NCBI GenBank assembly: GCA_008369845.1
Contig: MRSU01010299.1
Location: forward strand, 1-35,791
Reading direction: 5' to 3'
Origin: Trichomonas gallinae
Lineage: Eukaryota
Length of the DNA: 35,791 nucleotides
In this document: one piece after another, positions 8,221-33,064 of the stretch
Position numbering within the stretch: position 1 is the first letter of the stretch
Layout: every line of letters starts with the position of its first letter
Position numbers and translations under genes: made by a program
Notes under the pieces: model-generated
The model's database searches: none
Told to the model about the DNA's origin: nothing
What the model saw: only the letters and a program-made list of their open reading frames with translations

Positions 8221-8868
8221 TTAAATATATATAATAACTATTATTACAAAAATCCTAAGGGAAGTTCTGAAACTTGGTCAAAGGAAGCCTATGAAATTCT
8301 TCAGCGTATCATAAAAGAAAAAGATTTCGATGCTATGCAATTTATTGTCAAAGAGAAATACAAGGCTAAGCGATTTAGTCAAGTAATTTTTGAAAATGCA
8401 TTAATTGTTGATAAATTTCAATATACTCGTTTTATAATGGAAATTGATAGAAATGCCTATTTAATTCATTTTATAGTGGAAAAAATGTCATCCAACATTC
8501 GCTTTGTGAAATTTATTATCAAGTCTCATTACTTTAATATTTATCAGTTTCTATTTAGTACCTGTCTAAATGGTCATTAATAAGTTATCAAACTCATTCT
8601 CACTGTTAATGATATAGATATCAACGCAATAGATTGTAAATACAAAAGTACAGCTTTGATTTTTGCTTCATTAAACGGTCAGTATGAAATTGTCAAACTC
8701 ATCCTCGGAGTTTTTGGAATAAATGCCAACGCAAACAATTGTTGCAGCAAAACAGCTTTGATTTGTGCAGCAAAAAATGGTCATCATGAAGATGTCAAAC
8801 TCTTCCTCACTGTTCCAGGAATAGATGCCAATAAGGAAGACATTGACAACAGAGAACTTTTCCTTTAA
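8221..8868 (+). pseudogene. Ankyrin-repeat gene relic
   Basis: ORF-track pieces 8335-8580 and 8656-8868 are in one frame separated by TAA TAA (8578-8583): ..CLNGH**VIKLILTVNDIDINAIDCKYKSTALIFASLNGQYEIVKLIL..KTALICAAKNGHHEDVKLFL. The frame is open from about 8212 without an ATG; 5' boundary approximate. Confidence 0.8.
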
Positions 8869-9177
8869 GATTGAGGTTTTGAAAAGATACAAAGAATTAT
8901 TGCGAAATTATTTTTAGTTTTTTGATTTTTATGAACTAACATCAAAAATATATTAATAACAACAACATATTATGCATATGCATATAGTTTACATATGAAC
9001 ACAGCTTAAATATAATATCTGCAATTTTTTTTGATAAATTTCAACAGTAAAATGAGATTTTGATCAAATTTTTCAATATTTTGCAACTATTCATTGATTA
9101 AATACGAATACTTTAATAATTTGATCGAAATAAAATTTGCAGGGGAATGAAAAGTGCAATAACCCTTCATAAAAATA

Positions 9178-12100
9178 ATGAGTTCCTCGCCGACGTCAAC
9201 TGTCCCGGGGATCTACAAAATTGTGCCACCAGGTGATTTGAAGGAAATTCCTACATCTATTGGTGACAATGTTTTACATTTAGACATAAATTCAAATAAA
9301 ATTATTTCTTTTCCTGACAGATTGCATCAATTAATATCTTTAAACATTAGCAATAATCCTATTACAGTATCTACATTAGGTAATTTGCAGAATTTACGAT
9401 CTTTATCATTAGATTTTTGCAATATCAAAAAATTCAAAGTCTTTCCGAACCTTCCTCATCTAACACACTTATCACTTGTTGGAAATGAAATTACAAATTT
9501 GAAAGATTTTCCTATTTACCCAAATTTAAATTCAATTGATTTTCGAGGAAATCCTTTAGTTTATGATGAGTATCTTCTTATTGCTGCTATTGGATCCCAC
9601 AATCTTTCTAAACTAAATAACACGAAAATACAAGAAAAAACGTTTATCAAAGCTTTTTCAATTTCGCCAATAATTGGTTATTCAATACGCCACGGTAACC
9701 AACTGACCCACCAAGATGATGAGCTTGATAACGCGATATCATTTTTAACTAGTGAGTCTCCATTAAAAATTATCGATTCAGGACAAACGAAAAGCTTAGT
9801 TCCACCGCGTGGCGCGAATTCTTTTAAGTGGTATTACCTAGAAAACTCCAAGTGGATAGATTTGGACTGTCCAACACGCACTCTTCCAATTACGCCATTT
9901 TTATCATTAAAACTCATCAAATGCGACTTCGACGGACTTTCCAGTTACACTGCTACACCTGTAGGATGGGATGAGCAGGGACCAATAAGTTTCCACAACT
10001 CATTTCCAGAGATAATTGGCGACATAACATCCGGAGCAATTATTGCAGCAAATGTCGCAGAAAATACACGAATAATATGGAAAATAGGCGACAAGGAGAT
10101 TGGAAATGGCAGCTACTGCGAAATACCAGAGAATTCAGATGGACTTACGCTGAGTTGCATCTCTGCTTCAGTTTCTGATGCTTTCCCTAATGTCAGTTTT
10201 GCTCCGATTATTTCAGTTTTTACAATACAAAAACCCGATTATGAATTTTCCGAATTTTCTATTACTGAGAATCCTGAAATCAATGCATCACTCGGCATAA
10301 AGATAGAGGCATATCCAGCCAATTCTAAGTTCACTGTTTACATCGACATCGCTGATGATTTGGCGAGCGAATTCAAGAATATTGCATCCGTCGAATTTCC
10401 ATATGAATATTTAATCCCGCCGGATCTCGCTGGCAAATTCATCAGAATATCAGTGAATCTAGGCGATGATGATTTCTTGTACGCTTATTCGAAAGAGAGA
10501 GTCAGAGGCCAAGGACTCAAAAACATTGAAGCAACAATCGTTGGCTCGTACAAAGCTGGGCACCCACACATTTTACTTTTCGAAGACAAAGAATTTGGCA
10601 AAAAATGCAAAATCGAGTGGCTCACATTATCAGACTACGGAGTCTACACTAACTACTCTGTAACAGGACCAGTTTTCACGCCGCCTATTGATGCCGTGAA
10701 CGCGACAATCTGCTGCCACATTATTCCAGATGAAGATGAAACAGAATATGGAGAAACAGTCGTCGAATCTCCTGTTCCTTTAGGCGAAAGCTCTCAACTC
10801 GAGGAGTATAATGTAGAGAAGGCCCCATACGAGGGATCTAAGATAGAGATGGATTCAGAAGGTCAGTGGCAGATATCCAAAGGCACAGAATTAGTTGACG
10901 TTGATTTTTCGGAAAATTTTGTTCCTCAGCAAGAACAAATTGGCGAATATCTCAGATTCTATTCGGACACTAAAGACGTCGTATTCGGTGTCGTGGAGAA
11001 GTCGATCCTCAAAATCAAGTCTGTCGTATTAGAAACAGATGGAGGAGACTACAGTGGAGCTTTAGCTTCGATTTCCGTGAATTATTACGAAGAACCAGTA
11101 GAATACAAAGTTACTTGGATCCGTGTTTTAAGAGGTGGCGACCAAAAGGTCGCTAAAGAAGGCGGAGAATCCTATGCTATCACATCTGAAGACGTCGGCT
11201 GTAAAATAAAGGCAAGAGTTTCGACGCAAAACGAGTCAAAGGATTCGAATATCACGCCTATGATAAGAGCTGGCTTATTCAAGGAAAAAATCATGTCCAG
11301 CAAAATTTTTGTTGGCCAGAGGTTGACCGTTGATGCTGATAAAGGAAGGGTGACATTTTTCAAGTCAATCGATGGTTTCAATTTCACGGAAATTCCAACG
11401 AAAAGAGATTTAAACTTGTTGTGGTGTGACGTGGATTGTTTCATCCGTATTTTGGTGAAGAACAAAAAATACATTTATTATGAGGATTCAGTTGACAGAG
11501 TTTTGCCAACAAAAGTCAAGACTGGCGACAATCTGCAGGTGAAACACATCTTCAGGAAGTCAGACACTAGGACGAATTACAGATGGTATGATCAGTATGA
11601 TGCGATTGTTTCAACAGAAGGTTCTTACGTTGTAAAGAAAAGCGACAAATCTTTAACAATTGTCAATGAAAATCCATCAGACAAAGAGGACTTCGAGCTC
11701 TGCAACATACAGAATATAGTGTCCATGGATTCTCCGCTGAGTCTTGAGCTGCTGCCGAGCGGTTCTCTTTGCATTATCGGCGACTTGGTGTCAGAAGAAG
11801 GCGAGTTTTTCTGGCGAATATGGAGGGACGGCTTCTGCGATGACATTGATAATGGAGGTTCCCCGACTCTTATCTTACTGCCAGCTATGATAGGAAGCGA
11901 GATAGAAGGCGGATGGAGAGCAAACGAGAGAGATAATGTAACATGGATTCCAAAGAAGTATTATGTCGCTCGAGCCCTTCCACAGCCTGTTGCCGTGATG
12001 ACAGAAGAAGATCCGCTCGTTGTTGGCAGCCAGTTGTTTGTGTCAACAGAGAACAGCGACCACTATAGCTTCAAGTTCGAGTGGAAGCGATGGGATGGCG

Positions 12101-12825
12101 ACCAGTTCATTCCTATTAAAGGAGAAACAAACGTCCACATCATCGATGAAGATGACTGCGACTGCTATGTTTGCTGCGATGCCAGATTCGTTGACAAAGA
12201 TGGATTCCTCGGTCCGCCGTTTACAGTGCGCACATCTGAAGTTGTACCACCAGCAAATTACATAGCAATCGAAGGAAGGCCAGTTGTTGGCTCGCTTTTG
12301 GCAGCTGTTTCGAATGATGACTTTGTCAAAAGGTGCAGATTCGAGTGGCAGATTCTTCATGATGGATTTAACTGGACTGTTGTTTCAACCAGATCCAAAT
12401 ACAGGCCAGTGCGTGATGATGTTGGTGCTGTTGTTCGCATTGTTGGCGTTTTCGATGATGAGCAGAGATTTTCTGCAGAACTTGGCCCGATTGAAGACGA
12501 CAGCGAAGAAATCCAAAGTGCTGTTCAACACGCTGTTAAAAGTGGCTCTTTGACGATGAAGGCGAAGGACCACAAGGGTGACATTTTCACAGTCGATATT
12601 GGAAAGAAGAGCTTCACTGTGAAAGGCGGCAAATTTAACTCAGACACTTTCTCGTGGAGGCAATCGAACAACATCGTCGCAACTCCAGGAAGCAGCAGGA
12701 AAATAGACGTCATTATCAACGGAAATGCACTTAGTCTTCTCCCAACAGACACAGATCCACTCGACTGCGATTTGAAGACATACAGAGAATTCGTCCTCTT
12801 AGTCGTCGCAACATTGAAAGGATAA
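9178..12825 (+). CDS. AIR9-like protein: N-terminal leucine-rich repeats plus multiple A9 Ig-like domains (1215 aa)
   Basis: LRRs (LHLDINSNKI, LISLNISNNPI, LRSLSLDFCNI, LTHLSLVGNEI, LNSIDFRGNPL), followed by repeated A9-type signatures W....Y...DxG..I (YAITSEDVGCKIKARV, HIIDEDDCDCYVCC, YRPVRDDVGAVVRI). Confidence 0.85.
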   Translation: MSSSPTSTVPGIYKIVPPGDLKEIPTSIGDNVLHLDINSNKIISFPDRLHQLISLNISNNPITVSTLGNLQNLRSLSLDFCNIKKFKVFPNLPHLTHLSLVGNEITNLKDFPIYPNLNSIDFRGNPLVYDEYLLIAAIGSHNLSKLNNTKIQEKTFIKAFSISPIIGYSIRHGNQLTHQDDELDNAISFLTSESPLKIIDSGQTKSLVPPRGANSFKWYYLENSKWIDLDCPTRTLPITPFLSLKLIKCDFDGLSSYTATPVGWDEQGPISFHNSFPEIIGDITSGAIIAANVAENTRIIWKIGDKEIGNGSYCEIPENSDGLTLSCISASVSDAFPNVSFAPIISVFTIQKPDYEFSEFSITENPEINASLGIKIEAYPANSKFTVYIDIADDLASEFKNIASVEFPYEYLIPPDLAGKFIRISVNLGDDDFLYAYSKERVRGQGLKNIEATIVGSYKAGHPHILLFEDKEFGKKCKIEWLTLSDYGVYTNYSVTGPVFTPPIDAVNATICCHIIPDEDETEYGETVVESPVPLGESSQLEEYNVEKAPYEGSKIEMDSEGQWQISKGTELVDVDFSENFVPQQEQIGEYLRFYSDTKDVVFGVVEKSILKIKSVVLETDGGDYSGALASISVNYYEEPVEYKVTWIRVLRGGDQKVAKEGGESYAITSEDVGCKIKARVSTQNESKDSNITPMIRAGLFKEKIMSSKIFVGQRLTVDADKGRVTFFKSIDGFNFTEIPTKRDLNLLWCDVDCFIRILVKNKKYIYYEDSVDRVLPTKVKTGDNLQVKHIFRKSDTRTNYRWYDQYDAIVSTEGSYVVKKSDKSLTIVNENPSDKEDFELCNIQNIVSMDSPLSLELLPSGSLCIIGDLVSEEGEFFWRIWRDGFCDDIDNGGSPTLILLPAMIGSEIEGGWRANERDNVTWIPKKYYVARALPQPVAVMTEEDPLVVGSQLFVSTENSDHYSFKFEWKRWDGDQFIPIKGETNVHIIDEDDCDCYVCCDARFVDKDGFLGPPFTVRTSEVVPPANYIAIEGRPVVGSLLAAVSNDDFVKRCRFEWQILHDGFNWTVVSTRSKYRPVRDDVGAVVRIVGVFDDEQRFSAELGPIEDDSEEIQSAVQHAVKSGSLTMKAKDHKGDIFTVDIGKKSFTVKGGKFNSDTFSWRQSNNIVATPGSSRKIDVIINGNALSLLPTDTDPLDCDLKTYREFVLLVVATLKG

Positions 12826-13203
12826 TAATCATTTTTTTTATAATTTTTGTTTTTGTTTTGTTTTATTAAATACTTTTGTTTATATGCTAACATTGATTCA
12901 CAAATTCCAAACAATCATTCTTTATCAACCAAGATCATGTTGAAAACTTTATTCCACGACTTTTATAATTTATTCCTCAACAATTTCATAGTATGTCAAT
13001 GTTCTCAGTCATTTATCATATAACAAATGATTGATTTTAATAATTGAGCCAAAATTCTTTATATTCAAACCATACAACCTAATTATTATAATATTTCACA
13101 CGAGCTTATTAGATAATGATGTTTTAAATATAAAAATGAATGAAAATGATAAAATATATAGTTGGAAATATTTGAATATAAAAGAGGTAATGTATATTTA
13201 TGT

Positions 13204-15278
13204 CTAGTTGTATGGAGATGTCGCGTAGAATCCCATCGAGCAGATAGGACACTGAGATCTCTTGTTGACGAACTTGTCGAGGTCATCTCTGCAGACGACA
13301 GCGTGTCCACATGGAATGAGTTTCATCAAGTGGTTCTTTGTGCCGCAGATGCAGCACTTTCCGTGTTCTGGCTTCATTGGTGTTCTGACTCTTATTGGCT
13401 GTGACAGAGCTAAAACATTCGCCTGCTGCCTTGTCCTTCTTGGTGCTCTCTTTATCTGCTTCTTAGCGCCAGCACTGACTAATGCGTTGATAATCTCAGT
13501 CATCTTCAAGTCTTGAGCGAGTTTAAATGGAGAGTGTCCCTGTGTATTAGGATCAGCGCCAGCGGCCAACAATGCTTCAACAATAGGAAGTGAACGAATA
13601 CCTACAGCATTATATAATGGTGTCATGCCAGAATTGTTCACGTGGTCCATGTTGCATTCCTGCAAGAGAATGAGCTGGACGACGTGGACGTTGTTGGATC
13701 TTACAGCAGGGAACAAAGCGTTTTCGTTATCCTCGTTGATCGCGCGTGGATCAGCCCCGTTTTGCAGCAAGTATTCGACGATTTTTTCGTTGCCTGATCT
13801 TGCTGCGGCAAAAAGTGGCAGCTCTTTGCCTCCGATTTCGACATCTGCTCCTCCGTTTACTACAGCCTTGACCACATCGATGCTGCCCGTTTCTATGGCG
13901 CGGATCAAAGGCAGACCGTCTGGTTGAACGGAATTCAAATCAAATCTGTTAGTTAAGAGTTTCTTGATTCCAGCGATGTTCTTTTGCCTGATATAATTAA
14001 AGAGTGTCGCTGGTGGTGGAGGAAGGTCAGCATTGAGCGAGGACATGGCTGCACGAGCTAATGATGGATCATGTTCGCGAATTGCTTCACAAATATCTGA
14101 TTCTCCCATCTCCATGGCGTGAGAGAAGCAGTTTGTGCGACCAAGAGAAGCTGTTGCTCCACTTTGAAGTAATAATTTTGCAATTGCAGTCTGATGGAGA
14201 GAAATTGCAGCATTAATTGGTGTAAGGCTGTCATTGTTGAAAGTGTTGATGTTAACTTGCTTAGAAATGAGCTGTTTGACGAGATCAATATTTCCAGTTC
14301 TAACAGCAATGAAAAGTGCTGATTCTCCTTCAGCATTTTGGAGTTCAAGGTCAGCACCACTGGAAATGAGAAGATCTATAATCTCTGGATTATTATTCAA
14401 AATGGCCATATGCAAAGGTGGCTCCAAAAACGTCTTTGTCTGTGCGTTAACATTTGCTCCATAGTCAAGAAGCATATTCACACACTCATATGCATCATTT
14501 TCGACTGCTGCATGCAACAAAGTTTCATTATCAAAGAAAGGCTCGTTAACATTGACTCCTTCTATGTTCTTTTCAAGCTCCTTGAAGTTGTTGGCGATGC
14601 AGTATTCGAATAAGCTCACCAATGGGCTGTCATAGCTTCTTGGCGCTTTATTTCTTGCTGACGTCATTTCTGAGGACAAAACTTCAGGTGTCAGCTTCTC
14701 ATCGCGAGATGACATCGGAAGCGACATGATATTCTTAATTTCATCTTGAGAAATTCCATTAATATTTTGATCGACGTGAATATCCATGAGTGGCTTTGTT
14801 AATGTCGTGCTCTTGAATTGCACAGCGATAGAAAGTGGTGTTTCGTCAGATTTATTCTTGTGATTTCCATCTGCTCCGTTCTGAAGCAAATATTCAAGAA
14901 AATCAGGTCGTTTAAAGCGAATTGCTGTGAAAACAGGCGTTTCACCCTCAATATTTTCAGTATTTACATCAGCTCCGGACTTAATAAGTGCATAAAAAGC
15001 TTCAGTTTTTCCTTCTTGGATTGCAATTTGTAAAGGAGTGTCTTCTTAAGCAAAATAATGAACGTATCCTTCAGTTTTAGCCTCCAAATCCATTTTCTTT
15101 TCAATTAAGAAGTTAATAACGTTAATAGAGTTGCATTTTGCGGCCATGTGTAAAAGAGTTTCTCCATAATAGAAAAATGAACGTCAAAGTTAGCTGTATA
15201 TATGTCTGTTCCTTCATCCAGCAGTTTCTTGAGCTCCTCGAGATTATCAGTTTCTGCTGCTTGAAAAATTGCAGTCAT
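13204..15278 (-). CDS. Ankyrin-repeat protein with C-terminal RING finger (putative E3 ligase); predicted segments 15278-15183, 15165-15064 and 15045-13204 (679 aa if joined)
   Basis: The ORF-track start at 14889 is a TTG in mid-repeat; the frame stays open to 15045. Two more ankyrin-coding segments lie upstream, beginning at ATG 15278 (MTAIFQAAETDNLEELKKLLDEG). C-terminus CCIC..PCGH..CRDD..CPIC. The join depends on two non-canonical 17/18-nt inserts. Confidence 0.8.
15046..15063 (-). other. Candidate 18-nt non-canonical intron (GTTCATTATTTTGCTTAA)
   Basis: Contains the only in-frame stop between two intact ankyrin repeats; removal gives AKTEGY|EDTPLQIA. Confidence 0.55.
15166..15182 (-). 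other. Candidate 17-nt non-canonical intron (GTTCATTTTTCTATTAT)
   Basis: Frame-shifting insert; removal gives TANFD|GETLLHMAA. Shares its first 7 nt and repeat position with the 18-nt insert. Confidence 0.55.
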
Positions 15279-15302
15279 CGAAATCTGAAAAAACGAACTT
15301 TG

Positions 15303-15846
15303 TTTACACGTCAGATTTTACTTTACATTTTTTGACTTTCTTTCTAAATCTAAAATATACTCAATATAATATGCTTAAGTTTCGATTTTTGTTCATTATT
15401 AAAGAATTAATTTACATGACAAATCATATTTTTAAAATTTCTTTTTAGATTTAGATATATAGTCATTATATTATATTCATATCGATTTTCATGCGATTTT
15501 AGTTCATTAATTTACATGTCAAATAATATTTAGATTGATTTTCTTTTAAGATTTAATTTATACATATTATGATATATTTAAATTTCGATTTTCATAAGTT
15601 TTTTTTCTGATCATATAACTGTCAAATTTTTATATACAATTTCTAAATTTTCTTTTAGATTTAATTTACACACACGATAAATAACCATATTTCAATTTAA
15701 TTTTTTTTATTAGTTATTTTACATGTCAAATTTTAATTTTAAAAAAATAATTTTATTGTATTTATAATATACGAATCATTGTGTGTTTAAATTTGTTATA
15801 TCCATAGATGTGGAAAGTCAGAAAATTGAAGAATTTACATGTCAAA
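15303..15846. repeat. Degenerate tandem array of about 5 units of 100-116 bp in a divergent intergenic region
   Basis: Units start with a TTTACAYGWCARA-like motif at 15303, 15411, 15511, about 15613 (degenerate), 15718 and 15834. The first four share TTTCTTTT(A/T)AGATTTA-like blocks and the first three a TCGATTTT block. Confidence 0.7.
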
Positions 15847-15848
15847 AA

Positions 15849-15853
15849 TCACT
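15849..15853 (+). promoter_or_regulatory. Initiator (Inr) TCACT
   Basis: TCACT directly before ATG 15854; favours this start over 15839, which lies inside the TTTACATGTCAAA motif. Confidence 0.45.
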
Positions 15854-16390
15854 ATGATTGAAAAAGAGCCTGATTGGCTCGGCCCTCGAGTATTCTTCGA
15901 TGTATCAATAGCCGGGAGTTTGATAGGGCGAGTAAAAATTGAATTAAGACCGGATATTTGCCCACTTGCAGCGGAAAATTTTAGACAATTTTGTACAGGA
16001 CAGCACAGACCAAAAGGAATACCTATAGGATACAAAGATACAACTTTTCATCGCGTTGTGCCAGGTTTTATTGTACAAGGAGGCGATTGCGATACAAGAG
16101 ATGGCTACGGGTGCATTTCCATTTATGGAAGGGAGTTCGATGATGAACCATCAGCTTATACATTCGATGAGCCAGGAATTATCGCAATGGCGAACTCTGG
16201 TCCAAATTCAAATGGATGTCAGTTCTTTATTACACTAAATCCTGCTCAAGAACTTAATGGTAGCTACGTAGTTATCGGAAAAGTTATTGAAGGGATGTTG
16301 GCGCTTAGACACGTTGAAAGTGTGCCTTTGAAACCACATAGCGAAACACCATCTCTGGAATGCGTCATATCTGAGTGTGGAGAATTATAA
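15854..16390 (+). CDS. PPIH: Cyclophilin-type PPIase, cyclophilin H (U4/U6 snRNP)-like
   Basis: VFFDVSI..AENFRQFCTG..KGIPIGYK..FHR..QGGD..MANSGPNSNGCQFFIT..ISECGEL. The FRQFCTG, GxPxGYK insert and NGCQFF are PPIH hallmarks. Alternative start at 15839. Confidence 0.88.
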   Translation: MIEKEPDWLGPRVFFDVSIAGSLIGRVKIELRPDICPLAAENFRQFCTGQHRPKGIPIGYKDTTFHRVVPGFIVQGGDCDTRDGYGCISIYGREFDDEPSAYTFDEPGIIAMANSGPNSNGCQFFITLNPAQELNGSYVVIGKVIEGMLALRHVESVPLKPHSETPSLECVISECGEL

Positions 16391-16764
16391 TTGTTTGTAT
16401 TTAAATACGGTTTTGTTAAATGTTTTTATCATTTTCTATTTGATGTGATTTTTTTGCTGGTTTCATGCGAATTACATCGCTAGTGCATATTAACAGCATT
16501 GTTTGAAAACAATTCTGTATTTAAAAACTTTTGTCAGAATGTTATATTTACATGTCAATATTATGTTTACACGTCAAATCATCATCATTTTGAATTCAAA
16601 ATAATCGTTTAATGATTGCATTCTGACAATATTTAATTTCACATATTCATTATCATAATATTGATTATCAGTAGTATTAGCATGTTTTAAAAGTATAAAT
16701 AATAGGAAAGAAAGTTTCATTTTACAATTTAGTGCAATATATTATTGAAATAAATAAACAAAAT

Positions 16765-18246
16765 TTAAGGAACAAGCTTTGCCTTTGTGAAGATGATCCA
16801 TGCAGATATTCCTGCAGCACCGACAATAATTGTTGGAGCGGTGATTAAAAATGTCATAAATGCATTAAATCTAATGAGTGATATAGATATTTTCACGTCA
16901 CAATTATCTCCATACATATATTTAGGACAAATACATTGCTCAAGCAGGCATTTTCCTTTGCAACTTTGAGAACAATTTTTAGTCATCCATCTTGTCATTA
17001 TCCTTACTATTTCTCGTGTTTTATTGAAATTTTCGGTACTAGTTTCATTAATTCCTTTGAGATCACAAAATTGGGATTCGTTTTTCATTCCGAAGTATAA
17101 TCTTTGTATAAATTTGTCATATTCTGTGGTAGTAAGTCGATCTTGTGGGTATGAGCCGCAGGTAGTATAAATTGTATTAGTAGTTTGGATATATTTTGAA
17201 CCGTAAAACTTAACAATATCAGCGTGATAAATCTTTTTATATGTTATATTGAAAACCTTATTACAAACAGATTTATAGTATTCTTCATTGAGATTCTGAT
17301 TAGAAAATTTTGGAGCAGTTTTGAACGAACTAAGTTGTGTGCATTGCAGGTAAAGAATAGCTTTAGCATCGTTTGTTTTGTTTTCTAAATTTAGTGGATC
17401 AAATACATTTGGATCAATTTTTGTTCTATCTGTCCATTTGTTGTAAATAGTTTTGAATTTTCCATTCACATTCTTGCAAAGGTTGATCAGCTCATTTGAG
17501 TTATTAAAATTAATTATATCAATTATAAATTCGCTGATGAGATAAAAGGCGCTGCTGATATTATTGGACTCAGTCACTCTGGTAAGGCTTATTGGATCGT
17601 TATCATTTATAAAATTTATGATATTATCATAGCAATTTGGAGAGATTTGGTTGATATTTGTATTAAGGTATTCATCAATATCTGTAAAATTCTCCAAATT
17701 TAATATTGGCGAAGAAATCCATCCAAATGTACTAAATCTTGAATATTTTAACTTGAACCAGGAAGCTATAGTGCCTTGAAGTCCACCTGCGATGATTGTA
17801 AAGTTATATGTACAGTCCCCTAATGTGTCGTTAATTTTACATATTCGATTTTGGTGAGAGAAATTATCAAGATATATCGCAAGGTCTTCCATTATTTGTT
17901 CTACTGTAAGATATGTATAATCAACGGTTCCATTTTCGAATTCAGGAACAGAGTTGGCGAAATATCTTAATTCTGGTATGATTAAACTTGAATTTGTTAT
18001 ATTTGCTAATTCATAAACGGTATGGTTTTCAATATTATCGATCTCATTGATTATATTATTTGAATATCCGAGATAAACGATGGTTGAAAGGTAAGGTTTG
18101 TTTTCTTGGACAAAATCAGTAAAATGATGAAAGCGCTGAATGAAGGTTTTATTATTTGTTAGGTTGAAGTGGTCCAGTGCTTGACTGAAGTTCTCTATGG
18201 AATAATTATTGTAGGAGAATGTCATCTTCGCCAAGAAATAAAACAT
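16765..18246 (-). CDS. Peptidase S28-family homolog, probably inactive, with an EGF-like module and C-terminal TM anchor
   Basis: FSQALDHF..TFIQRF, ELRYFANSVP, YLTVEQIMEDLA, SWFKLKY, YLQCTQL, then CKGKCLLEQCICPKYMYGDNC and a hydrophobic tail. Confidence 0.85.
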   Translation of the reverse strand: MFYFLAKMTFSYNNYSIENFSQALDHFNLTNNKTFIQRFHHFTDFVQENKPYLSTIVYLGYSNNIINEIDNIENHTVYELANITNSSLIIPELRYFANSVPEFENGTVDYTYLTVEQIMEDLAIYLDNFSHQNRICKINDTLGDCTYNFTIIAGGLQGTIASWFKLKYSRFSTFGWISSPILNLENFTDIDEYLNTNINQISPNCYDNIINFINDNDPISLTRVTESNNISSAFYLISEFIIDIINFNNSNELINLCKNVNGKFKTIYNKWTDRTKIDPNVFDPLNLENKTNDAKAILYLQCTQLSSFKTAPKFSNQNLNEEYYKSVCNKVFNITYKKIYHADIVKFYGSKYIQTTNTIYTTCGSYPQDRLTTTEYDKFIQRLYFGMKNESQFCDLKGINETSTENFNKTREIVRIMTRWMTKNCSQSCKGKCLLEQCICPKYMYGDNCDVKISISLIRFNAFMTFLITAPTIIVGAAGISAWIIFTKAKLVP

Positions 18247-18794
18247 TTTTATTTAATTGAGATAAAAGTGGCAGAATTTTTGATTTTTATTTTACATGAT
18301 TTTTTTTTTGACACTTTACATTTATAGTAAAATTTCAAAAAACATGACTATGAAGCATTATACAATACAAACCAACATGTTTATCATTGGTTATTTCTGC
18401 TATTCATCTGTTGTTGCACATCTATAACCATTATACTAATGTCTGCAAATGAAATTATAATTATTTGACATGTAAATAATTTTGCCATGTAAATTATTTT
18501 TTTAAATTTTGATTATTATTGGAATGGAGTATTATTAAGAAAATAATCTAACTGAAATATTATTATATAGCTCAAATGAAATCATTTTATATGGGTATTC
18601 AATATCGTTTTCATTTGTTTTGAAAATCAAAAAATATAATTTTTCTTTTTCCAAAAACAACAGAACATATATCCATATTGAGAAGAGTTAAGTCATATTT
18701 TTAGATTGGAATCATGTAAAATAAAAATTTCAAAAATTATTTTTGAAATGAAAACCATATTAACATTGATTTATTTCAACAAATAACAGCTATT

Positions 18795-19769
18795 TTATGC
18801 GTCAAGATAGAATTCTGGCTGCTCTTTCTTGCAACGATATAATGGAAGTGCGTTCAAACAGTAAAGAATAAAGGAAATAACAGAAATTATTAACGATAAG
18901 AAGCAAAGGACTATAAAGAAATAACCAAAGAATGCGTTTTTGCCACCAATTCCGTGAGTTTGAGCCAAAACAATGTTCTTCTTCATTTTGCTTTCACCAA
19001 TTGGGTAGTTATTGGTTACAGTAACGTTAAACTTGGTTCCAGCTTCAATATCAACGTTCTTAATATAACCAAATAATTTTCTAACAGTTTTCAGTGGGTT
19101 AATTTGGATCCAGTTAATGAAGTGCTCGTTTGTTTGTCCACCTGGGAACAATTCTGATTCGTTATCTCTCAACCAATAATTGTATGCTTGATCGGTCTGG
19201 TTTTTAGCGTTCTTGAAGACTTTTTTGTATTCCTTTTGTGTAATTCCTGTTTCAACGATCGTGTATTTTTCGTCAGCGATCTTAAAAGTATCATTGAATA
19301 CGGACATCGGAAGAGCACCGCATGGAACATTTTTTGGACCAACATCCGGCTGTTTGCAGGTCTTTATGTTACTAAATGATAATCCTTTTAGCTGCTCCCA
19401 GCTTTTAGACTTTGCGTAAGCAAAATGATTCTGATGGAAGTTATCTAGTTGATAATAAAATAGTAAATCACCGCTTACTTTCATTGGAATCTCGACTTCA
19501 ACATTGCATGTTGACTCATTGCAATCTGAATAATCGTATTTAATGTCTAAAAGAGCTCTGTTAGAAGCCATAATAGAGGCACCAATAACCATTGATATCA
19601 GAGCGAATACACCGTAAATGACGGCTGCCCACAAAGGTGTTAAGAATGGCTTGCAGGCCGGAACTTTCTGCTGCTTAAACTTGCTTTCTGCATATGGGAT
19701 TTTCACTTCTGGCTCGCTATCATTTGGTAATTCGATAGTCTCGTGAAGCTCGGATTGCTTCGAATCCAT
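18795..19769 (-). CDS. CDC50/LEM3 family P4-ATPase flippase beta subunit
   Basis: FKQQKVPACKP, FYYQLDNFHQNHFAYAKSKS..QLKG, PCGALPMSVFNDTF, NEHFINW, IGGKNAFFG and two TM helices. First ATG at 19769 with Inr TCATT at 19785-19781. Confidence 0.93.
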   Translation of the reverse strand: MDSKQSELHETIELPNDSEPEVKIPYAESKFKQQKVPACKPFLTPLWAAVIYGVFALISMVIGASIMASNRALLDIKYDYSDCNESTCNVEVEIPMKVSGDLLFYYQLDNFHQNHFAYAKSKSWEQLKGLSFSNIKTCKQPDVGPKNVPCGALPMSVFNDTFKIADEKYTIVETGITQKEYKKVFKNAKNQTDQAYNYWLRDNESELFPGGQTNEHFINWIQINPLKTVRKLFGYIKNVDIEAGTKFNVTVTNNYPIGESKMKKNIVLAQTHGIGGKNAFFGYFFIVLCFLSLIISVISFILYCLNALPLYRCKKEQPEFYLDA

Positions 19770-20641
19770 AGGATTTAAAAAATGAAATAAATATTTTTTC
19801 AATAAAAATTAGGGTCTATCGACATATCTTAAAAATATTATTTCAAACTTAATTTACTAAAAATAAAACATTTTTAGATAAAATAGGGAGGAGTCACCAA
19901 TTCAAAACTTCGATAGAACCAAAAAAACTAGTTTTATTCCTTGTCCTTTTAATATCTTGTTATACATAGTGTACCCAATCCATAGATTCGCTCCAGACGA
20001 TTTATTTTCATTGAAATATAATTTTGTTGCTCAATCGTATCAAAGAGCACCGCAATGTTTATTATATTACTAAACAGGCCATAAATATCTGTATCGTTAG
20101 TTGTTTTGCGTTCTATTTTAATCCTTTTTATATGATCAAAAATTTCATTCATTAATTATGCTTATTTATGAATGTATTATCCATTTATTTGATCTATTTA
20201 TTCAAAATAAGTTATTTACTTCATCGAACTCACATAATATTTTTGAATCAGGAAATATTTTGTATGAACAAAGTTTAGTTATTGGAAATAATTATATCAG
20301 TGCTATATTAGCATAATTTAGTCCACTCAATTCACATGGACATTGATAATAATTAATTCTCAAATGTATAGATACAAACAACTATTAAATTATATAAAAT
20401 ATAATAGCTGGTGTTAAAAAGACCCGTCATATATAATCCGGTGACATATTTTATTTAATTAATTCTCCTTTGAATAATAAATTTGTGATTTTATATGCAT
20501 TATTATCTCAATATGTTCCTTAGCTAGTTATGGTTACAACTTTATTAATGAAAAGGTTATAAATTTCAAAGTTCGACTGTTTCTATTTAAAAAATTCCAA
20601 CATTTTTCGAGGAAAAATTTTTCCGGTGTTTTTTATTTTTC

Positions 20642-21223
20642 ATGTTTCGCAAAAATGATAAAGGCCACGACAAATTCCAGGCAATAGTCGCCCTGATAAG
20701 GGCGAAAGCCTCTAAAGCCAAGCCGATGTATGATATTGCAGTTAGAGGCTTAACACGCGCAATAGAACAAGGCAGAAAAATTGATATTCGTTCAAAGGTC
20801 ATGACTGAGCATAAAATTAGGCAGCAACTTGATGCTTACAACAAAGCATCTGAAATTGGCCGCGATGTTTTGAAGCGTTACGGCGAATTATGGTGTGATC
20901 ATCCTTCAGAAGAAGTTCAGAACCAATACATCGAATTATTCACATATAAAGAGATTCTTGGTCTTCCTGATGTTAATAATTTTTGGAATGCTCATCCTCT
21001 TGCATTGACTGCAGGACAAGGTGACCAAAAAGAGCTTGAAGAGTTAATGGATGACGATGAAATAGCAGAATATCTCCATACATTCGCAAAAGAGCACCAA
21101 ATAAATCAAAAAGGAATGGAATTTTTGCAAATCTTATATCCATACGGCGATGTCCTCGATATGATTCCAACAGGTGCACCAGTATATCCACCTCCACCAG
21201 TTTATCCCCCACCACCACAATAA
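20642..21223 (+). CDS. Hypothetical protein, possibly a divergent IST1 (ESCRT-III-like) N-terminal domain with a proline-rich tail
   Basis: 193-aa ORF with by-eye similarity to the IST1 helical core (AIEQGR..IRSKV; VLKRYGEL; IAEYLHTFAKEHQI); tail PVYPPPPVYPPPPQ. The CDS is secure, the family call tentative. Confidence 0.7.
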   Translation: MFRKNDKGHDKFQAIVALIRAKASKAKPMYDIAVRGLTRAIEQGRKIDIRSKVMTEHKIRQQLDAYNKASEIGRDVLKRYGELWCDHPSEEVQNQYIELFTYKEILGLPDVNNFWNAHPLALTAGQGDQKELEELMDDDEIAEYLHTFAKEHQINQKGMEFLQILYPYGDVLDMIPTGAPVYPPPPVYPPPPQ

Positions 21224-21558
21224 TTCACTGATCCAGATTTTATCTTAAAATTATTTGTTTATTCAATCATAAATAAGCTAATCTTTCATCCATTTACAAA
21301 TTTCTTTAAATGTTTAATTCTAGAAAACACACTTTTCTCGATTAATTATTATTTTCAAAATATATTTAAGTGAGTTCATTCATAATCATATATACATTTC
21401 TGCTCTTTATGTCATGGATATTATAAATATATATGAAACATGTGAAAAAATCGATTTTGATGTTAAAATATAAAATTTTGGAAAGTAAACAAAAACAACT
21501 AATTAATACATTATCTTTATATTCTATCATTAACATACACAAACAATAACACGCCAAA

Positions 21559-22671
21559 TCACTGGGTCTCCTTAGGCATAATCGGAATTAACTTGCAAGA
21601 CTTCTTAGGTAAGTTCTTCTCGACAATGATGGACTTAGCAAGCTTACAAGATCCGAATCGGCCGTACTTCTTCGGCTGAGGAAGGCAGACTTTTCGCCTG
21701 CATAAAGGAATTGTAGATTCAACTTCGATTGTTTTATACTCTACATCGTTCTTTTTCATCTGCTTGATTGGATCCATGACAGTCTGATATATCTCGTTGT
21801 TAATAACTCTCAAGAAACCGGCTGGATTGTCGAATTGCTCGGTGTAACATGAAGAAGAGAAAACAGTGATGCAGGTATCGCTGAAAAACGTTTTTACACC
21901 AGTCGCAATGCACTGGTGAGCTCTGATTAAACGCTTGAGATTATTGTTCTTTAAGAACTCCAGAGTGGCATTGACACCAAATTGGCAGCCATGGCCGCGT
22001 TGGTTCTTAACAAAGTAAGCACTACCATTTGTTGGATCGCTCCACATCAAATCTGAGACTAATCGATCATCATCATATGATATAATGGGCTTTCTAATAC
22101 ATGCAATCTGCTCTACATTTGAGAGAAGAGGGCTGATACCACCATGAACAAGTAAAGTTGTGTCATTTAATATTCCGGCAAGTGGCATAAACGAGAAAAC
22201 TTCATTAAAAAGATCGTATATCTGTATGTCATACCTCTCTAGAACCTGTTCCTTAAATCCATAATTTGCATTTACGTCTGCAAATTCATGATTGCCTCTT
22301 AATAAGAAGCATTGATCAGGATAAGCGAGTTTGATAGTGAACAAAAGTGTTATAACCTCAATGGAAAGGTCACCTCTATCAACATAATCGCCTAAAAATA
22401 TATAATTGGAATATGTTGGAGATCCAGATATCGTAAAAATTCTTAATAGATCTCTGAGATTTCCATGTATGTCTCCAACAATCGTGTAGCATCCATTTAA
22501 ATGTAATAGAGTGCCTTCTGTCTGAAAGATATAAGCAACGTTTTTGAGCAATGTGATTAAATCTTGTTTCTTGAGTGTTGGAATAGTTATAGGTGTTGCA
22601 CCGCTGATGTCAATATCCCTGTTCGGAAGAAATAGCGGGAGATAAGCGTCAAGGATACTGCGGGATAGCAT
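21559..22671 (-). CDS. Ser/Thr protein phosphatase, PPP (calcineurin-like) family
   Basis: GDIHG, GDYVDRG, LRGNHE, HGGISP, DLMWSDP and IRAHQ motifs all intact. Confidence 0.96.
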   Translation of the reverse strand: MLSRSILDAYLPLFLPNRDIDISGATPITIPTLKKQDLITLLKNVAYIFQTEGTLLHLNGCYTIVGDIHGNLRDLLRIFTISGSPTYSNYIFLGDYVDRGDLSIEVITLLFTIKLAYPDQCFLLRGNHEFADVNANYGFKEQVLERYDIQIYDLFNEVFSFMPLAGILNDTTLLVHGGISPLLSNVEQIACIRKPIISYDDDRLVSDLMWSDPTNGSAYFVKNQRGHGCQFGVNATLEFLKNNNLKRLIRAHQCIATGVKTFFSDTCITVFSSSCYTEQFDNPAGFLRVINNEIYQTVMDPIKQMKKNDVEYKTIEVESTIPLCRRKVCLPQPKKYGRFGSCKLAKSIIVEKNLPKKSCKLIPIMPKETQ

Positions 22672-24065
22672 TATTTATATTAAAAAATAAATTGAATAGA
22701 TTCAAAGAGAGATTTCAATTCCAAAATTTATAAATATTACACCTTTTGGACTATAGAAAAACTTTTTTTTCAATATTTTTTCCCAAGTTTTGGATTTTTA
22801 TTTGGTCATTACTTTATTATCGATTTATGTGCATCCCATTTGTCAATGAAGCAGCTCCCCACCAAAAAAGTTTTATATTGGAATAAAATCGAAAATTAGA
22901 GACTAATGACATATCCGATCAGATTTATACATAAAATTAAAAAGAACAAAAAGTGACTCGTTATCAAATTTTTAAAATTTCACTGATATATTATTTACAT
23001 TAAAATATATTCGACAATTGCGGCTGTGTAATTCGACTTCTCAATTTTTCAATGCGTAACAAATATCATAAACCACAAAATTATTGTTGTTATCATATAA
23101 TAAAGCAAAACATTTTTTGAAATCGTAATTTGAAAGTGCAATTTTTTCAATGAATTTTTTCCTTGGATTAATAATTTAATTTATAAAGTTTTTAAAGTCA
23201 AACAATGTTATTTTTAATTTTGTTTTGATATATTCAAAACTTCAAACGTTTTGTTTCAGAATAATATTTTAATGGTAGGATATATAAACTATAATAAAGC
23301 TAATTTTATGTAAATTGGGCAAAACTGAAGGTTGTGAAAAAAACAATAATTTCAGGTGTGATTCTGTTCAGTTCATTATGTCATTATACTTATTATTGAA
23401 TTATAAACATATTTGCAAACAATGGCCAAATGTTTGCGCCCATTCTATTGGCTTCAATAATCTGCTAAATGGGCCACATATTTTTGAGTTGTAATCAATA
23501 TGTGTTTTCATTTATATCAGCAAAAACTCTAATCTTTTACCAATTAAACATGATTTAAACTATAATTTATTCCATCTCCGGTAATACAGCACAAGAAGAT
23601 AAAATTTGATAAAGTTGGCTATTTAGACCCTTTTGAGAACTGTAAAACCAATAAAATAGCATGTTTTGTTTAAAATTAACTAATTTCTCGACAAATCCTT
23701 TTTGATAATCTATAAGTTTATATGTAATCTATATATGAACTCATAAATCATGCGATTCTCCATTATAATCCTTCAATATTGTTTTTTAATAATTTGAATC
23801 TAATATAACAGGAATTGACACAAGTTCGCACTTTCCACATGGTTATTATCAATATTATATATTCTATTATATGCAATTTCTGTATAATTACGATATTTGA
23901 TGGGAAGTTTGATTTTTTTTTTAAGATCAAAGTTGTGGTACTTATCACATATAAAGTATGATATACAAACAACACTAGAATACAAACCAATCAGAAAAAG
24001 ATCATATTCTTAAATATATTCAAAAAATAAAGCATAATTTAAAATAACATGGTAATAATAACACA

Positions 24066-25760
24066 TTATTTGAGAGACTCAAGTAATTTCTTTGATGCAG
24101 CTGCAATATCAGGAAAATCTTTGCAATCAACAAGTTTTTCCAAAATTGGTTTTGCAATTTCGAGATGACTGATTTTAGCTACATAGTAAAGAGCAGGTGG
24201 ATACCCAAGGTTAACAGATCTATCTAAATATCTCTGTCTTTCCGAGTATTTAGTCACTTTTGCAGCAGCGAATGCAAAAGCTCCGTTATTATCATCCATG
24301 TTTGCGCATTTCAAAAACAATTCTTTAGCGAGATCTGCATTTTTCTCGACGTGTTGACCATTGTTTAACAGAATTGCGTAATGGTACATTGCATGTGGGT
24401 TGTTTTGATCACAGGAAGATTTCAGTAATTCCATTCCTTCTTCGATTTCATTGTTATTTAATAAAGCTGACGCCAAATCATACATAGTTCTAGGATTTTG
24501 GTTTGTTCTGTATTCCTTCCTTGCAACCTTCACTGCTTCTTTCGTATTTCCTCTTTTTGTCAATAAAAGGATTAGATTATATGTTGCAATTTCAGATCCT
24601 TTTTCTGATGCTTGCCTGTATAACTCCAGAGCTTTTTCTTCATCTTTTTCAACGCCTTCTCCTTCTTCATACATTCTCGCAAGATTGTTCATCGCTGCTG
24701 CATCTTCTCCACTACCAGCTATTTTCTTTGTAGTCTCGAAATCTCTCTTTACGACACTGACAAGCAGTTTTGCATCTCTATGACCTAATTCAGCAGCTGA
24801 TTCTAGTTCGTCGAAATTTTCACTGCCTAGGCCTCTTAAATACATGCTTTCAGCATCATCCTTTCCTTCTGCCTCTTTAATCAGTTGCTGGAGGACTATC
24901 TGAGAGTTTGTGAAATTGCCGTCAGGTTGGTTGGCTTTTTGCAGCAAAACTCGAAGTTTTTGTGGACTTTTTTCTTTTAGATAATCTAATGATTCTGGTA
25001 AAGCTTTAACATAGCCCTTTTCAGCTGCCATTTCCATATACTTGGCTTTTTCTTCTTCATTGTCTGTGTATATTGAGTAATAATAACACGCACGAGCTAA
25101 TCCAGAATCAGCTGCTGATTTCATGTATTTTTGTTTGAGAGATCTATCAATATCTCTTCTAATAGCGACATTGAATTGAGCTTGAGGGACTCCAGCTTCA
25201 GCTGCCTTCATCAAATAATCTAAATAATTTTGATCGCCTGTTGTTGATAAAATCATTGCGAGATTAAACATTGCTATTGGATAATTTTGATCAGCAGCTA
25301 GTCTGTAGTAGTGTATTGCTTTTTCTGTGTCTTTTTGCAAACCATGAATTCCTTTTTCGTAAAATGAGCCAAGAATATTGTTCGCCGAGGGTATATTAAG
25401 GTAAGAAGCCTTTTCATAGTATAATAATGCCATTTTTGAGTTAGATGTAATAATATCACCAAATTCATAAAGGTGAGCTATCAATAATATAGCATTTTTA
25501 TGATTTTGATCTGCTGCTGATTGCAAATTTATGAGTCCGGTTGATGTATCTTGCAGATAATATTTTCCATTAATTAAATATTTGCCTAATAAATACTCTG
25601 CGGGGCTGTATTTCAATTTTGCGGATTCAAGAAGAAATTCTTTGCCTTTTTGGATTGATTCTTCTTGGTTTTCCTTAAATAACGATCTTGCTTTTTTATA
25701 TAATTCCTTTGCTTTCGAATTTGAATCTGCTGGATCATCTCTTTGCGATTCACATGCCAT
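24066..25760 (-). CDS. Sel1-like repeat (SLR) protein
   Basis: Repeats such as ANNILGSFYEKGIHGLQKDTEKAIHYYRLAADQN and AMNNLARMYEEGEGVEKDEEKALELYRQASEKG. Start 25760 preferred because the extension to ATG 25877 looks like AT-rich UTR. Confidence 0.9.
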   Translation of the reverse strand: MACESQRDDPADSNSKAKELYKKARSLFKENQEESIQKGKEFLLESAKLKYSPAEYLLGKYLINGKYYLQDTSTGLINLQSAADQNHKNAILLIAHLYEFGDIITSNSKMALLYYEKASYLNIPSANNILGSFYEKGIHGLQKDTEKAIHYYRLAADQNYPIAMFNLAMILSTTGDQNYLDYLMKAAEAGVPQAQFNVAIRRDIDRSLKQKYMKSAADSGLARACYYYSIYTDNEEEKAKYMEMAAEKGYVKALPESLDYLKEKSPQKLRVLLQKANQPDGNFTNSQIVLQQLIKEAEGKDDAESMYLRGLGSENFDELESAAELGHRDAKLLVSVVKRDFETTKKIAGSGEDAAAMNNLARMYEEGEGVEKDEEKALELYRQASEKGSEIATYNLILLLTKRGNTKEAVKVARKEYRTNQNPRTMYDLASALLNNNEIEEGMELLKSSCDQNNPHAMYHYAILLNNGQHVEKNADLAKELFLKCANMDDNNGAFAFAAAKVTKYSERQRYLDRSVNLGYPPALYYVAKISHLEIAKPILEKLVDCKDFPDIAAASKKLLESLK

Positions 25761-25924
25761 TATTTGCGGTTTTTCTTCTTTTTTAGACTTTTTTTTGTAA
25801 GCGCTTTTGAAACTAAAAAATGATATCTTTCGAAAATGAACAGTTTTTCTCTTCAATATGTTGTATGTATGAAGCATAATCTAATATTTTAATATAAGCA
25901 TAACAAACAAAGCAATATATTTAA

Positions 25925-26593
25925 TTAATATTCAAATTCATCGATATTAACAGGTGGGGCAATAACAACTGGCTTAAGCTCGTGTTTTAGCTGTCTTCTC
26001 TTATACGGCAAGTTAATTTCACGTTTTCGTTCAAATGTTTTCATTTTATACTTAATAAGCCAAATGGTACTGGTTGTTACAATAGACACAGCAAATGCCA
26101 GGACTATCAGGCAGTGTGAGAGAAATAATGGATAAATTTTCGAATTTAAATAATTTGAAAACGATTCTGTAATATTTTCTTCGAACTTCGTATTGAGAAT
26201 GCTGTAGACTTTGTTAATTAAAGCAGGATCCGATTCTGGATTTTTTATAAAATCTTCGAATATTTTTGCATATGTAGGATACTCGGATTCATTTAGTAAT
26301 ACGTATGGTATTGCAAAACAGAATACTAAAAGGAAAGGAGCCAAATAATTAACAATTGAAAGAAAAGTTGTTTTCATGAAGTGAATTGCAATAATTGAAA
26401 TGATTATCAATGAATCGAGAAATGTAATGACAGTAATTTTTATTGGTATTTTTTCGAAAAAATTTATAGACCATAATTTGGATTGTAATTCAAGTAAAAT
26501 GCGTGCATGTGTGAAAAGCATTGCGACGAAGATAGTCAGTGTTAACACTGATACAACATTTTGAAGCTTTCCAAATCTTCTATAAATTTGCAT
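25925..26593 (-). CDS. Hypothetical four-TM membrane protein (3 TM, loop, 1 TM)
   Basis: 222-aa ORF with four hydrophobic stretches and a charged C-tail; no CCG tetraspanin motif. Confidence 0.8.
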   Translation of the reverse strand: MQIYRRFGKLQNVVSVLTLTIFVAMLFTHARILLELQSKLWSINFFEKIPIKITVITFLDSLIIISIIAIHFMKTTFLSIVNYLAPFLLVFCFAIPYVLLNESEYPTYAKIFEDFIKNPESDPALINKVYSILNTKFEENITESFSNYLNSKIYPLFLSHCLIVLAFAVSIVTTSTIWLIKYKMKTFERKREINLPYKRRQLKHELKPVVIAPPVNIDEFEY

Positions 26594-26598
26594 GAATT

Positions 26599-26606
26599 GT
26601 CACTTT
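26599..26606 (-). promoter_or_regulatory. AAAGTGAC (M2-type) upstream motif
   Basis: AAAGTGAC ends 5 nt upstream of ATG 26593; matches a motif described as enriched upstream of T. vaginalis start codons. Confidence 0.5.
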
Positions 26607-26859
26607 TCAATTATACATGACATTTTTAAACAATTTACTTGACAAATTAATAGTAGATTTATTTTTTTACACGACAAATATGTTTTTATTCGACAAAATT
26701 TTTCAAAATTTTTGACAATTTTACGCGACATTTTTGAATATTACATGTCATATTATTTATATTAAAATTTTTAACAAATTTTACATGACAAAACTGATCA
26801 AAATTTTATTTGACAAATTTTAACAAAATTTTTGAAATTTGTTGATGGAAATTTTTGCA

Positions 26860-26864
26860 TCACT
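26860..26864 (+). promoter_or_regulatory. Initiator (Inr) TCACT
   Basis: TCACTTTT begins 20 nt upstream of ATG 26880. Confidence 0.6.
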
Positions 26865-26879
26865 TTTCAATAGACAAGG

Positions 26880-27248
26880 ATGAGGCTCTTTACTAGCCAG
26901 AGCGGTATTACCATCAAAGTCGGCGAGAACGCAAATGAAAATGATGTGTTAATAAAAACATCTCATCAAGATTCAATTTGGTGCCATTTAGACAATTATC
27001 CTTCTCCACACGTAGTTATTAATGATTCTAATCCTGATGCAGAGACAATACGTGATGCCTATCAGCTTGTTAAGTATTATTCAAAATACAAAGACCATCC
27101 ACAATTGAAAATCATTTCAACAGCAATAAGAAATGTTAAGAGAATCGATCCACAGAAGCCAGGATTAGTTCACCTAAGAAGATCACCAACGAGAAAAACG
27201 ATTCGTACTGATTTCAGCACCCTCAAGAGACTTGGCATCTCTCAGTAA
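26880..27248 (+). CDS. Stand-alone NFACT-R (DUF814) RNA-binding domain protein
   Basis: IKVGENANENDVL..DSIWCHLDNYPSPHVVI..AYQLVKYYSK..VKR..KPGLV matches the NFACT-R pattern vG+na.eNd.L...DiWfH....psxHVi. Confidence 0.88.
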   Translation: MRLFTSQSGITIKVGENANENDVLIKTSHQDSIWCHLDNYPSPHVVINDSNPDAETIRDAYQLVKYYSKYKDHPQLKIISTAIRNVKRIDPQKPGLVHLRRSPTRKTIRTDFSTLKRLGISQ

Positions 27249-27283
27249 TAAAAATTGTTTGTATAGATTAATACTTTTATAAA

Positions 27284-27616
27284 CTAGATTGATTTTTGTA
27301 TATAAATATGATTTGAGCCGATATCAAAAAGCCAATCATAACCAAATTTCATGTCAACCATTCCTATTATAATATCACCCTTTTTTGGCTTGTAAAAACA
27401 AAGTGTGTGACCAATTGCTATATCACTTTTTAAAAATTTTGCTTTGTCACCAAAAGAGACTGCTTCTGGGATATCTGCATCAAAGTGTGAGCATTTCTGC
27501 TGTTTTTTTTTTAGTTGAAATCGCGATTTGTAATAAAAATGTAAAATTTGACCAAGATCTTGATATAATGTTGCTGTACACCTAAAGATCCATCATTTCC
27601 TTTGAAAAATATTCAT
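27284..27616 (-). pseudogene. Interrupted/truncated S1-domain gene (exosome Rrp4/Rrp40-like)
   Basis: ATG 27616, in-frame TGA at codon 8 (27595-27593), then open for 102 codons ending FYKPKKGDIIIGMVDMKFGYDWLFDIGSNHIYIQKSI*. YxPxxGDxxIG..W..DIG resembles the Rrp4/Rrp40 S1 start. Not in the ORF track. Confidence 0.55.
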
Positions 27617-27822
27617 TTGTGAAAAAAATGTCGATATATCTCGAGTAAATATATTAAATATGAATATAATTGATTCATATTTAATTATAATTATTGCAAT
27701 ATTAATGCATTTTCATTTTAATTTTAAATAGAAAACAAAAAATAAAAAATAATATTTCGAGATTTATAATAAAAACAATAGATATTTTAATTGTGTATAG
27801 CAGATATTTAGAACATTGTATA

Positions 27823-33056: not shown

Positions 33057-33064
33057 CGATCTAA

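Follow-up and report, generated by a model that had tools for sequence, protein, structure and literature searches.

Two inserts of 17 and 18 nt in an ankyrin-RING gene of Trichomonas gallinae: likely members of an undescribed class of ultrashort introns

The window examined here, the whole stretch of DNA that was analyzed, comprises 35,791 nt of contig MRSU01010299.1 from the Trichomonas gallinae assembly GCA_008369845.1 and encodes, on the minus strand, a protein composed of ankyrin repeats and a RING finger. The gene extends from an ATG at position 15278 to a stop codon that ends at 13204, and its frame comprises 679 codons once two short inserts are removed. Pfam domains in the joined frame are Ank_2 (E 3e-64) and zf-C3HC4_3 (E 8e-8). 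Exon 1 (15183..15278, minus strand) provides 32 codons from the ATG, matches the N-terminus of the T. vaginalis ortholog, and ends in the first ankyrin beta-hairpin. It is followed by insert 1 (15166..15182, minus strand), 17 nt that stand in phase 0 after codon 32 and shift the frame, by exon 2 (15064..15165, minus strand), 102 nt that encode a single 34-codon ankyrin repeat, and by insert 2 (15046..15063, minus strand), 18 nt that also stand in phase 0 and carry an in-frame TAA. Exon 3 (13204..15045, minus strand) adds 613 codons of ankyrin repeats with a C-terminal C3HC4 RING finger, followed by the stop codon. Each of the two inserts is likely an intron.

A sequence-only reading had described the inserts as a look-alike pair flanking exactly one 34-codon repeat, and their positions, their lengths, the AC directly 5' of both, and the seven bases GTTCATT with which both begin were all reproduced on the minus strand. 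Joining the frame likewise confirmed that one insert shifts the frame, that the other contains a stop, and that no other lesion is present in the 679 codons. The probability that two unrelated pieces would share a 7-base start by chance is ~8e-5 given coding composition and ~7e-4 given intergenic composition. Moreover, the pattern ACGTWYADWWW occurs only three times in the 35.8-kb window, and two of these occurrences are the inserts. A CTAAC..AG or type B branch motif was found at neither insert, and the nearest short GT-AG readings are out of frame, as had been reported. Only two single GT-AG removals preserve the long frame, one of 203 nt and one of 236 nt. Of these, only the 236-nt intron had been named in the sequence-only reading.

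The evidence for excision consists of one assembled contig from one run (X2), among four runs aligned to positions 13100-15500, and this contig derives from a lineage that is ~4% different from the window. The contig is 2045 nt in length, spans 13191-15270 at ~96% identity with 81 substitutions, and contains 35 gap letters, 17 at insert 1 and 18 at insert 2, exactly at the predicted places. It lacks the first 8 nt of the reading frame (its 5' limit is 15270), retains exon 2, runs ungapped through exon 3, and ends 13 nt beyond the stop codon. Runs X3, X4, and X5 yielded short matches or none over the gene. The gaps of 17 and 18 nt also disagree with the short GT-AG readings and, by fixing the lengths, remove the 3-nt slide of the 3' boundaries that had been thought possible. 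A one-base slide of each cut remains, with G on both sides, such that GT..AT for insert 1 and GT..AA for insert 2 give the same mRNA as TT..TG and TT..AG, respectively. Introns of 203 or 236 nt are ruled out for X2, in which the middle exon is kept and the gap letters total 35.

The nature of X2 was evaluated in a control region (15001-35000). The eight other X2 pieces listed lie within open reading frames with an overhang of 0-30 nt at depths of 4.5-1420, and five of 30 bins are empty, whereas X1, a DNA run, is represented there by contigs of 4-6 kb that cross several genes at 22-28x. Because X2 contigs keep to gene limits and X1 contigs run across genes, X2 is very likely a transcriptome; the RNA label given by the tool is itself only a guess, and none of the runs listed as containing this DNA is registered as RNA. 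X1 and X2 have substitutions relative to the window in common. Among 40 listed of about 80 substitutions in the X2 gene, 38 are synonymous, which argues that the gene is under selection. Additionally, both of the X2 amino acid changes found among those 40 substitutions recur in two proteins, P0001 (encoded on a 7373-nt contig) and P0121 (on one of 6116 nt), and in each the predicted start is the TTG that comes first after the stop of insert 2. These starts suggest that the DNA of the X2 lineage probably has the insert-2 stop, although a contig edge could also cause them. A spliceosomal intron is present in DNA and absent from mature RNA; here, the DNA of the window has the inserts and the RNA-like contig, from a lineage 96% identical to it, does not, the DNA and RNA coming from different isolates. 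It should be noted that no gap of 17-18 nt was present among the indels listed for the eight other X2 pieces and that the window pattern adds none, and no non-ankyrin example was therefore found in a search for the class conducted almost exclusively in ankyrin genes.

Among named proteins, T. vaginalis EAY17147.1 is the closest; the representative of its cluster is 83% identical to the window protein, which sets the organism apart from T. vaginalis G3. The window protein, with its ankyrin repeats and C3HC4 RING finger, groups with EAY17147.1 with tree support of 100/100. Both junction peptides that had been predicted from precise removal of the inserts (ANFDGETLLH and TEGYEDTPLQ) are present in the T. 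vaginalis ortholog, which is annotated as an unbroken protein of 682 aa, and both repeats are kept in orthologs. An ankyrin transcript of that length is missing from the published T. vaginalis intron list (PMC12316389 S2), and the T. vaginalis gene is thus probably unbroken at the DNA level. DNA closely related to the window is also present in a bird metagenome.

Of 21 metagenome loci recovered, one (L001) encodes an ortholog, at 43% identity; the other 20 matched the RING only and were set aside. An unrooted tree places the L001 ortholog outside the group formed by the window and T. vaginalis proteins, and orthology and gene style indicate that the organism is likely a parabasalid; an Atlas search returned only generic ankyrins. 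In the L001 ortholog, both of the equivalent hairpins are broken, by 17 and 34 nt, in a frame that is otherwise open for 631 codons. In a comparison of break lengths with the ends kept fixed, scored on five full-length orthologs, a 17-nt piece starting with GT was best at break 1 (244.0 versus 241.8 for 23 nt, a margin of only 2.2 points) and a 34-nt piece was best at break 2 (246.4 versus 238.0 for 31 nt). Lengths of 23-29 nt at break 1 were rejected as an artifact of free-end scoring, in which longer deletions drew more residues into a fixed window. The restored ortholog is 693 aa in length, as is P0003. Break 1 is situated one codon later than insert 1 of the window, and the 34-nt break (L001:10097-10133) can also be parsed as 17 nt, TAT, and 17 nt, with both pieces starting with GT and the product being the same; if this break does consist of two 17-nt pieces, they would enclose an exon of 3 nt. 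Two tandem paralogs are located at L001:7169-8335 and 8654-9856, and the one tested had no Pfam match. In L001:298-1180, after an open frame at 1-297, similar-looking short segments with changing frames and many stops could represent either a decayed gene or further unrecognized introns.

The next ankyrin gene of L001 (gene 2, 12516-14530) is broken at 7 of 11 scored repeat hairpins. When excisions of 0-45 nt were tried using a matrix derived from unrelated ankyrin proteins (345 hairpins), 17 nt was the best length at all seven, by at least 15 bits. Three of the seven pieces have the same sequence, and a spacing of 116 nt, or 99 + 17, separates the first four broken repeats. In the register of the window, in which a piece ends 6 nt ahead of the Thr codon in TPLH, the pieces start with TT (one), AT (three), GT (two), or GC (one); a frame-restoring 17-mer that starts with GT is obtainable at all seven breaks, and the position of these pieces is thus less certain than their length. 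At L001:13960-14000, an intact ankyrin repeat has a hairpin that is longer by two residues (GYPS), and the same in-frame variant was observed in several paralogs.

Predicted proteins of paralogs end in tails that read into the pieces. By eye, 10 of the 21 paralog predictions from an N-terminal ORF search have an out-of-frame TPLH tail that measures 17 nt, one measures 11 nt, four stop within the hairpin, and six end otherwise; no tail with a 1-nt indel was found among the 21. A larger set of 105 proteins, retained after nine cluster mates were dropped and enriched by the tail query used to collect it, contained 62 measurable tails, 60 of which measure 17 nt, together with 23 proteins that stop in the hairpin, 6 with in-frame ends, and 14 unclassed. 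The read-through of the insert, VEFLYL, has an entropy of 0.8-1.4 bits per position versus 2.4-3.1 bits for the three preceding coding triplets, a conservation that is inflated by query bias and recent duplication. Cluster mates of eight paralog sets yielded no clean pair of spliced and unspliced forms, as the mates differ in repeat content. Proteins with many repeats took up most of a profile search of 50% representatives; the best 150 included four new proteins with a 17-nt tail or its start, which add no further taxon. The class is documented in two lineages only, and the paralog proteins may all come from one organism.

Across the 12 pieces available at the DNA level, with the 34-nt break counted as two, 11 are 17 nt in length; the pieces are T-rich and usually begin with GT, and no 3' dinucleotide is shared among them. 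The designation GT-AT/GT-AA, introduced on the basis of the window alone, is thus too narrow, and the common features are instead length, T-richness, and the usual 5' GT. A scan of prokaryote genomes for the insert pattern returned zero matches; a scan of viral contigs returned four (L022-L025:3001-3053), which lie in a phage gene in a different frame and are unrelated chance matches. Evidence from outside the window agrees with two expectations of the sequence-only reading: similar inserts recur at the same ankyrin position, as 17-nt pieces in the L001 ortholog and its paralogs, and removal of the inserts from RNA is favored over decay by this recurrence, the RNA-like contig that lacks both, the junction peptides in the ortholog, and the predominance of synonymous changes among the substitutions listed. 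True excision of the inserts from RNA is accordingly regarded as highly probable, and both inserts likely belong to a class of ultrashort introns that has not been described before.

Several known systems share features with these inserts. U12-type introns have AT-AC or GT-AG ends and an extended RTATCCTT 5' site, and this identity was rejected since the inserts show neither. HAC1 and XBP1 introns cut by IRE1, as well as tRNA-type introns, are ~20-26 nt in length, shift the frame, lack GT-AG ends, and are joined by a ligase; the former need CNG-CNG stem-loops and the latter a bulge-helix-bulge. The inserts resemble both in being tiny, frame-shifting, and non-GT-AG but differ in that neither type of structure is evident and in that they recur in many ankyrin repeats. 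The tiny introns of Stentor and Bigelowiella keep GT-AG ends, which the window inserts lack. At 15 nt in Stentor and 18 nt in Bigelowiella (lengths as relayed in PMC12316389), those introns fall in the same size range and indicate that a spliceosome can act on 15-18 nt; the same source reports U12 components to be absent from T. vaginalis. Nonconventional introns of euglenids, as described in PMC4770533 and PMC6221363, similarly have variable non-canonical borders and a removal mechanism that is unknown, but a stable structure joins their ends, whereas the trichomonad pieces are 17 nt, unstructured, and mostly start with GT, and stable pairing of the ends was not found in junction folds. Non-canonical junction candidates in Giardia, also a metamonad, include some in ankyrin genes and one 30-nt GT-AT junction; in the account of PMC10711314, however, the junctions listed in ankyrin genes span 93-279 nt in lengths divisible by three, are GC-rich, and are seldom spliced, unlike the trichomonad pieces, which are 17-18 nt, AT-rich, and need to be removed for the frame to stay open.

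The closest likeness is to the type B introns of Trichomonas, which are T-rich with a 5' motif of GTWYWD (PMC13548475 Table 2) and are described as 23-28 nt in length, with invariant GT-AG ends and a 3' site fused to TCTAAC (PMC12316389, PMC13548475, PMC6260720). Ankyrin genes with a type B intron are listed seven times in T. stableri (of 81 intron genes; 25 nt) and once in T. vaginalis, with first exons of 96-116 nt (PMC12316389 S2). The window inserts share with type B introns a very short and narrow length, T-richness, the GTWYWD motif (in both inserts), and often phase 0, and several type B introns in ankyrin genes lie near codon 32-38. Unlike type B introns, the inserts are 17-18 nt and lack both AG and a TCTAAC branch motif. 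They thus resemble type B introns at the 5' end but fail three of four type B sequence features tested and are not classed as type B.

The best explanation, to which we assign a probability of about one half, is that the inserts are introns of an overlooked ~17-nt trichomonad class, likely removed by a U2-type spliceosome with the 3' cut set by distance. The spliceosome would recognize the GT-starting 5' end, and the position of the 3' cut would then be determined by the distance from that end rather than by an AG. This presumes that the DNA of the X2 lineage contains both pieces and that the L001 pieces are excised from RNA; the class would be old and would have been lost from this gene in T. 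vaginalis, and the copies in the organism of L001 may have multiplied through duplication of whole 116-nt repeat units. For a spliceosome speak the T-richness of both window inserts and their start, GTTCAT, which conforms to the type B 5' motif, a motif that the L001 pieces match only in part. Moreover, because the branch A of a 25-nt type B intron comes after exactly 17 nt (our count from PMC13548475 and PMC6260720), the same geometry could set the 17-nt cut. Against it stand the lack of AG and CTAAC in both window inserts, a 17-nt piece without a single adenosine for branching (L001:9984-10000), the five of seven gene-2 pieces that start with TT, AT, or GC rather than GT in the best-aligned register, the 13 of 60 tails that lack Val at the first insert codon, and the presence of a frame-restoring GT-AG piece of 14-23 nt at only one of nine L001 breaks.

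These same observations (no AG, no branch motif, an A-less piece, some non-GT copies in the aligned register, and a near-fixed length) would be accounted for by a tentative alternative to spliceosomal removal with a distance-set cut, in which the introns are removed by non-spliceosomal cutting and ligation, through an endonuclease or guide that measures ~17 nt and an RtcB-type ligase, or by a lariat-free step of the spliceosome. Every piece of evidence for excision fits this alternative equally, and the greater conservation of the insert read-through relative to the preceding triplets, in a query-enriched set, suggests a sequence signal. It leaves the GT start and the type B-like 5' hexamer unexplained, and an IRE1-like or bulge-helix-bulge structure is not evident: in single-sequence folding, none of the nine junction regions folded better than shuffled sequence (z from -1.29 to +0.44), with no shared structure, which disfavors removal of the IRE1, tRNA, or euglenid type as well as template switching. 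Were this alternative correct, parabasalids might possess a second widespread mode of mRNA splicing that measures a 17-nt piece and uses no AG, branch adenosine, or lariat, a possibility held as doubtfully as the alternative itself. Such a mode would have escaped notice, with aligners reporting the gaps as deletions and motif filters removing them, and may explain part of the 923 T. vaginalis genes split by frameshift.

Readings without excision, or with a conventional intron, fare worse. It is improbable that the pieces always escape excision, as lesions in the DNA or as tiny mobile pieces, with an X2 lineage whose DNA lacks them and with the window gene and the L001 copies being pseudogenes or truncated variants. 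The X2 gaps could reflect the DNA of that lineage, the T. vaginalis protein is annotated as unbroken, dead repeats are possible in expanded ankyrin families, and T. vaginalis reportedly has 1,465 split genes (bioRxiv 10.64898/2026.08.31.748405). Lesions, however, would have to place two similar pieces at equivalent sites while damaging the 679 codons nowhere else, break the same two hairpins in a 43%-identical ortholog with a 631-codon frame otherwise open, accompany substitutions that are synonymous in 38 of the 40 listed, and leave no 1-nt indel tail in 21 paralogs; the X2-type proteins from two longer contigs also begin after the stop. Retention of the pieces in mRNA, with bypass by ribosomal frameshifting, readthrough, or hopping, is in line with proposals of readthrough and frameshifting for Trichomonas split genes (bioRxiv 10.64898/2026.08.31.748405), but the RNA-like contig itself lacks the bases at two separate frame-restoring sites. 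Against the X2 gaps being artifacts of reverse transcription or assembly, the junction repeat is one base only and there is no stable fold that would drive template switching. No unspliced X2 contig was found among those aligned, though contigs drop minor forms, and both bypass and artifact are considered very improbable. Least credible is a canonical GT-AG intron of 236 or 203 nt or an error in the window assembly: both in-frame removals exist, but the middle exon is retained in X2 and both repeats are retained in orthologs, and independent DNA (L001) has the same kind of AG-less pieces.

With its default settings, STAR has a minimum intron of 21 nt, and gaps of 17-18 nt are reported as deletions. 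Since STAR at default settings and a motif filter were used in PMC12316389 (2025), a class of 17-18 nt could not have surfaced there; that study lists 63 introns for T. vaginalis and 81 intron genes for T. stableri, and all of its T. vaginalis introns are GT-AG, the shortest being 23 nt. Trichomonad catalogs range from 48 to 81 introns, and both recent ones are motif-filtered (PMC12316389, PMC13548475); six motif-unassigned introns in PMC13548475 may bear on the novelty of the 17-nt class. None of the literature consulted, mostly non-subscription text (including PMC6679479, PMC13735942, PMC8529796, and PMC11978803), was found to describe parabasalid introns that are 17-18 nt long or lack an AG. 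If real, the introns would be among the shortest nuclear introns known and would seemingly need neither an AG at the 3' end nor an adenosine for branching, a property relevant to the choice of a 3' site by a reduced spliceosome or by another enzyme. Dozens of ankyrin genes in the organism of L001 would be mis-predicted as truncated. Split T. vaginalis genes have been recounted at 1,465, of which 923 are split by frameshift, with an argument made for readthrough (bioRxiv 10.64898/2026.08.31.748405); the question posed by the 2007 T. vaginalis genome, whether some of these genes reflect unrecognized tiny introns as opposed to pseudogenes, frameshifting, or readthrough, is now testable with existing RNA data.

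Other features of the window lie outside the ankyrin-RING gene. Its divergent neighbor (15839-16390, plus strand) encodes a cyclophilin with a best PDB match to the U-snRNP-associated cyclophilin H (E 6e-58), a likeness that is probably coincidental beside this gene. Two X1 contigs cover this region at ~73x, which suggests a second copy of it. The spacer upstream of the ankyrin-RING gene (15300-15850) contains, on its minus strand, some five motifs that resemble TGACATGTAAA, and many X1 contigs match short pieces of it and of other spacers; the element looks like a dispersed repeat or a promoter motif. High-copy repeats are located at 27447-27563 and 31009-32342, where the summed X1 depth is 1,100-2,900 per bin versus ~27 elsewhere.
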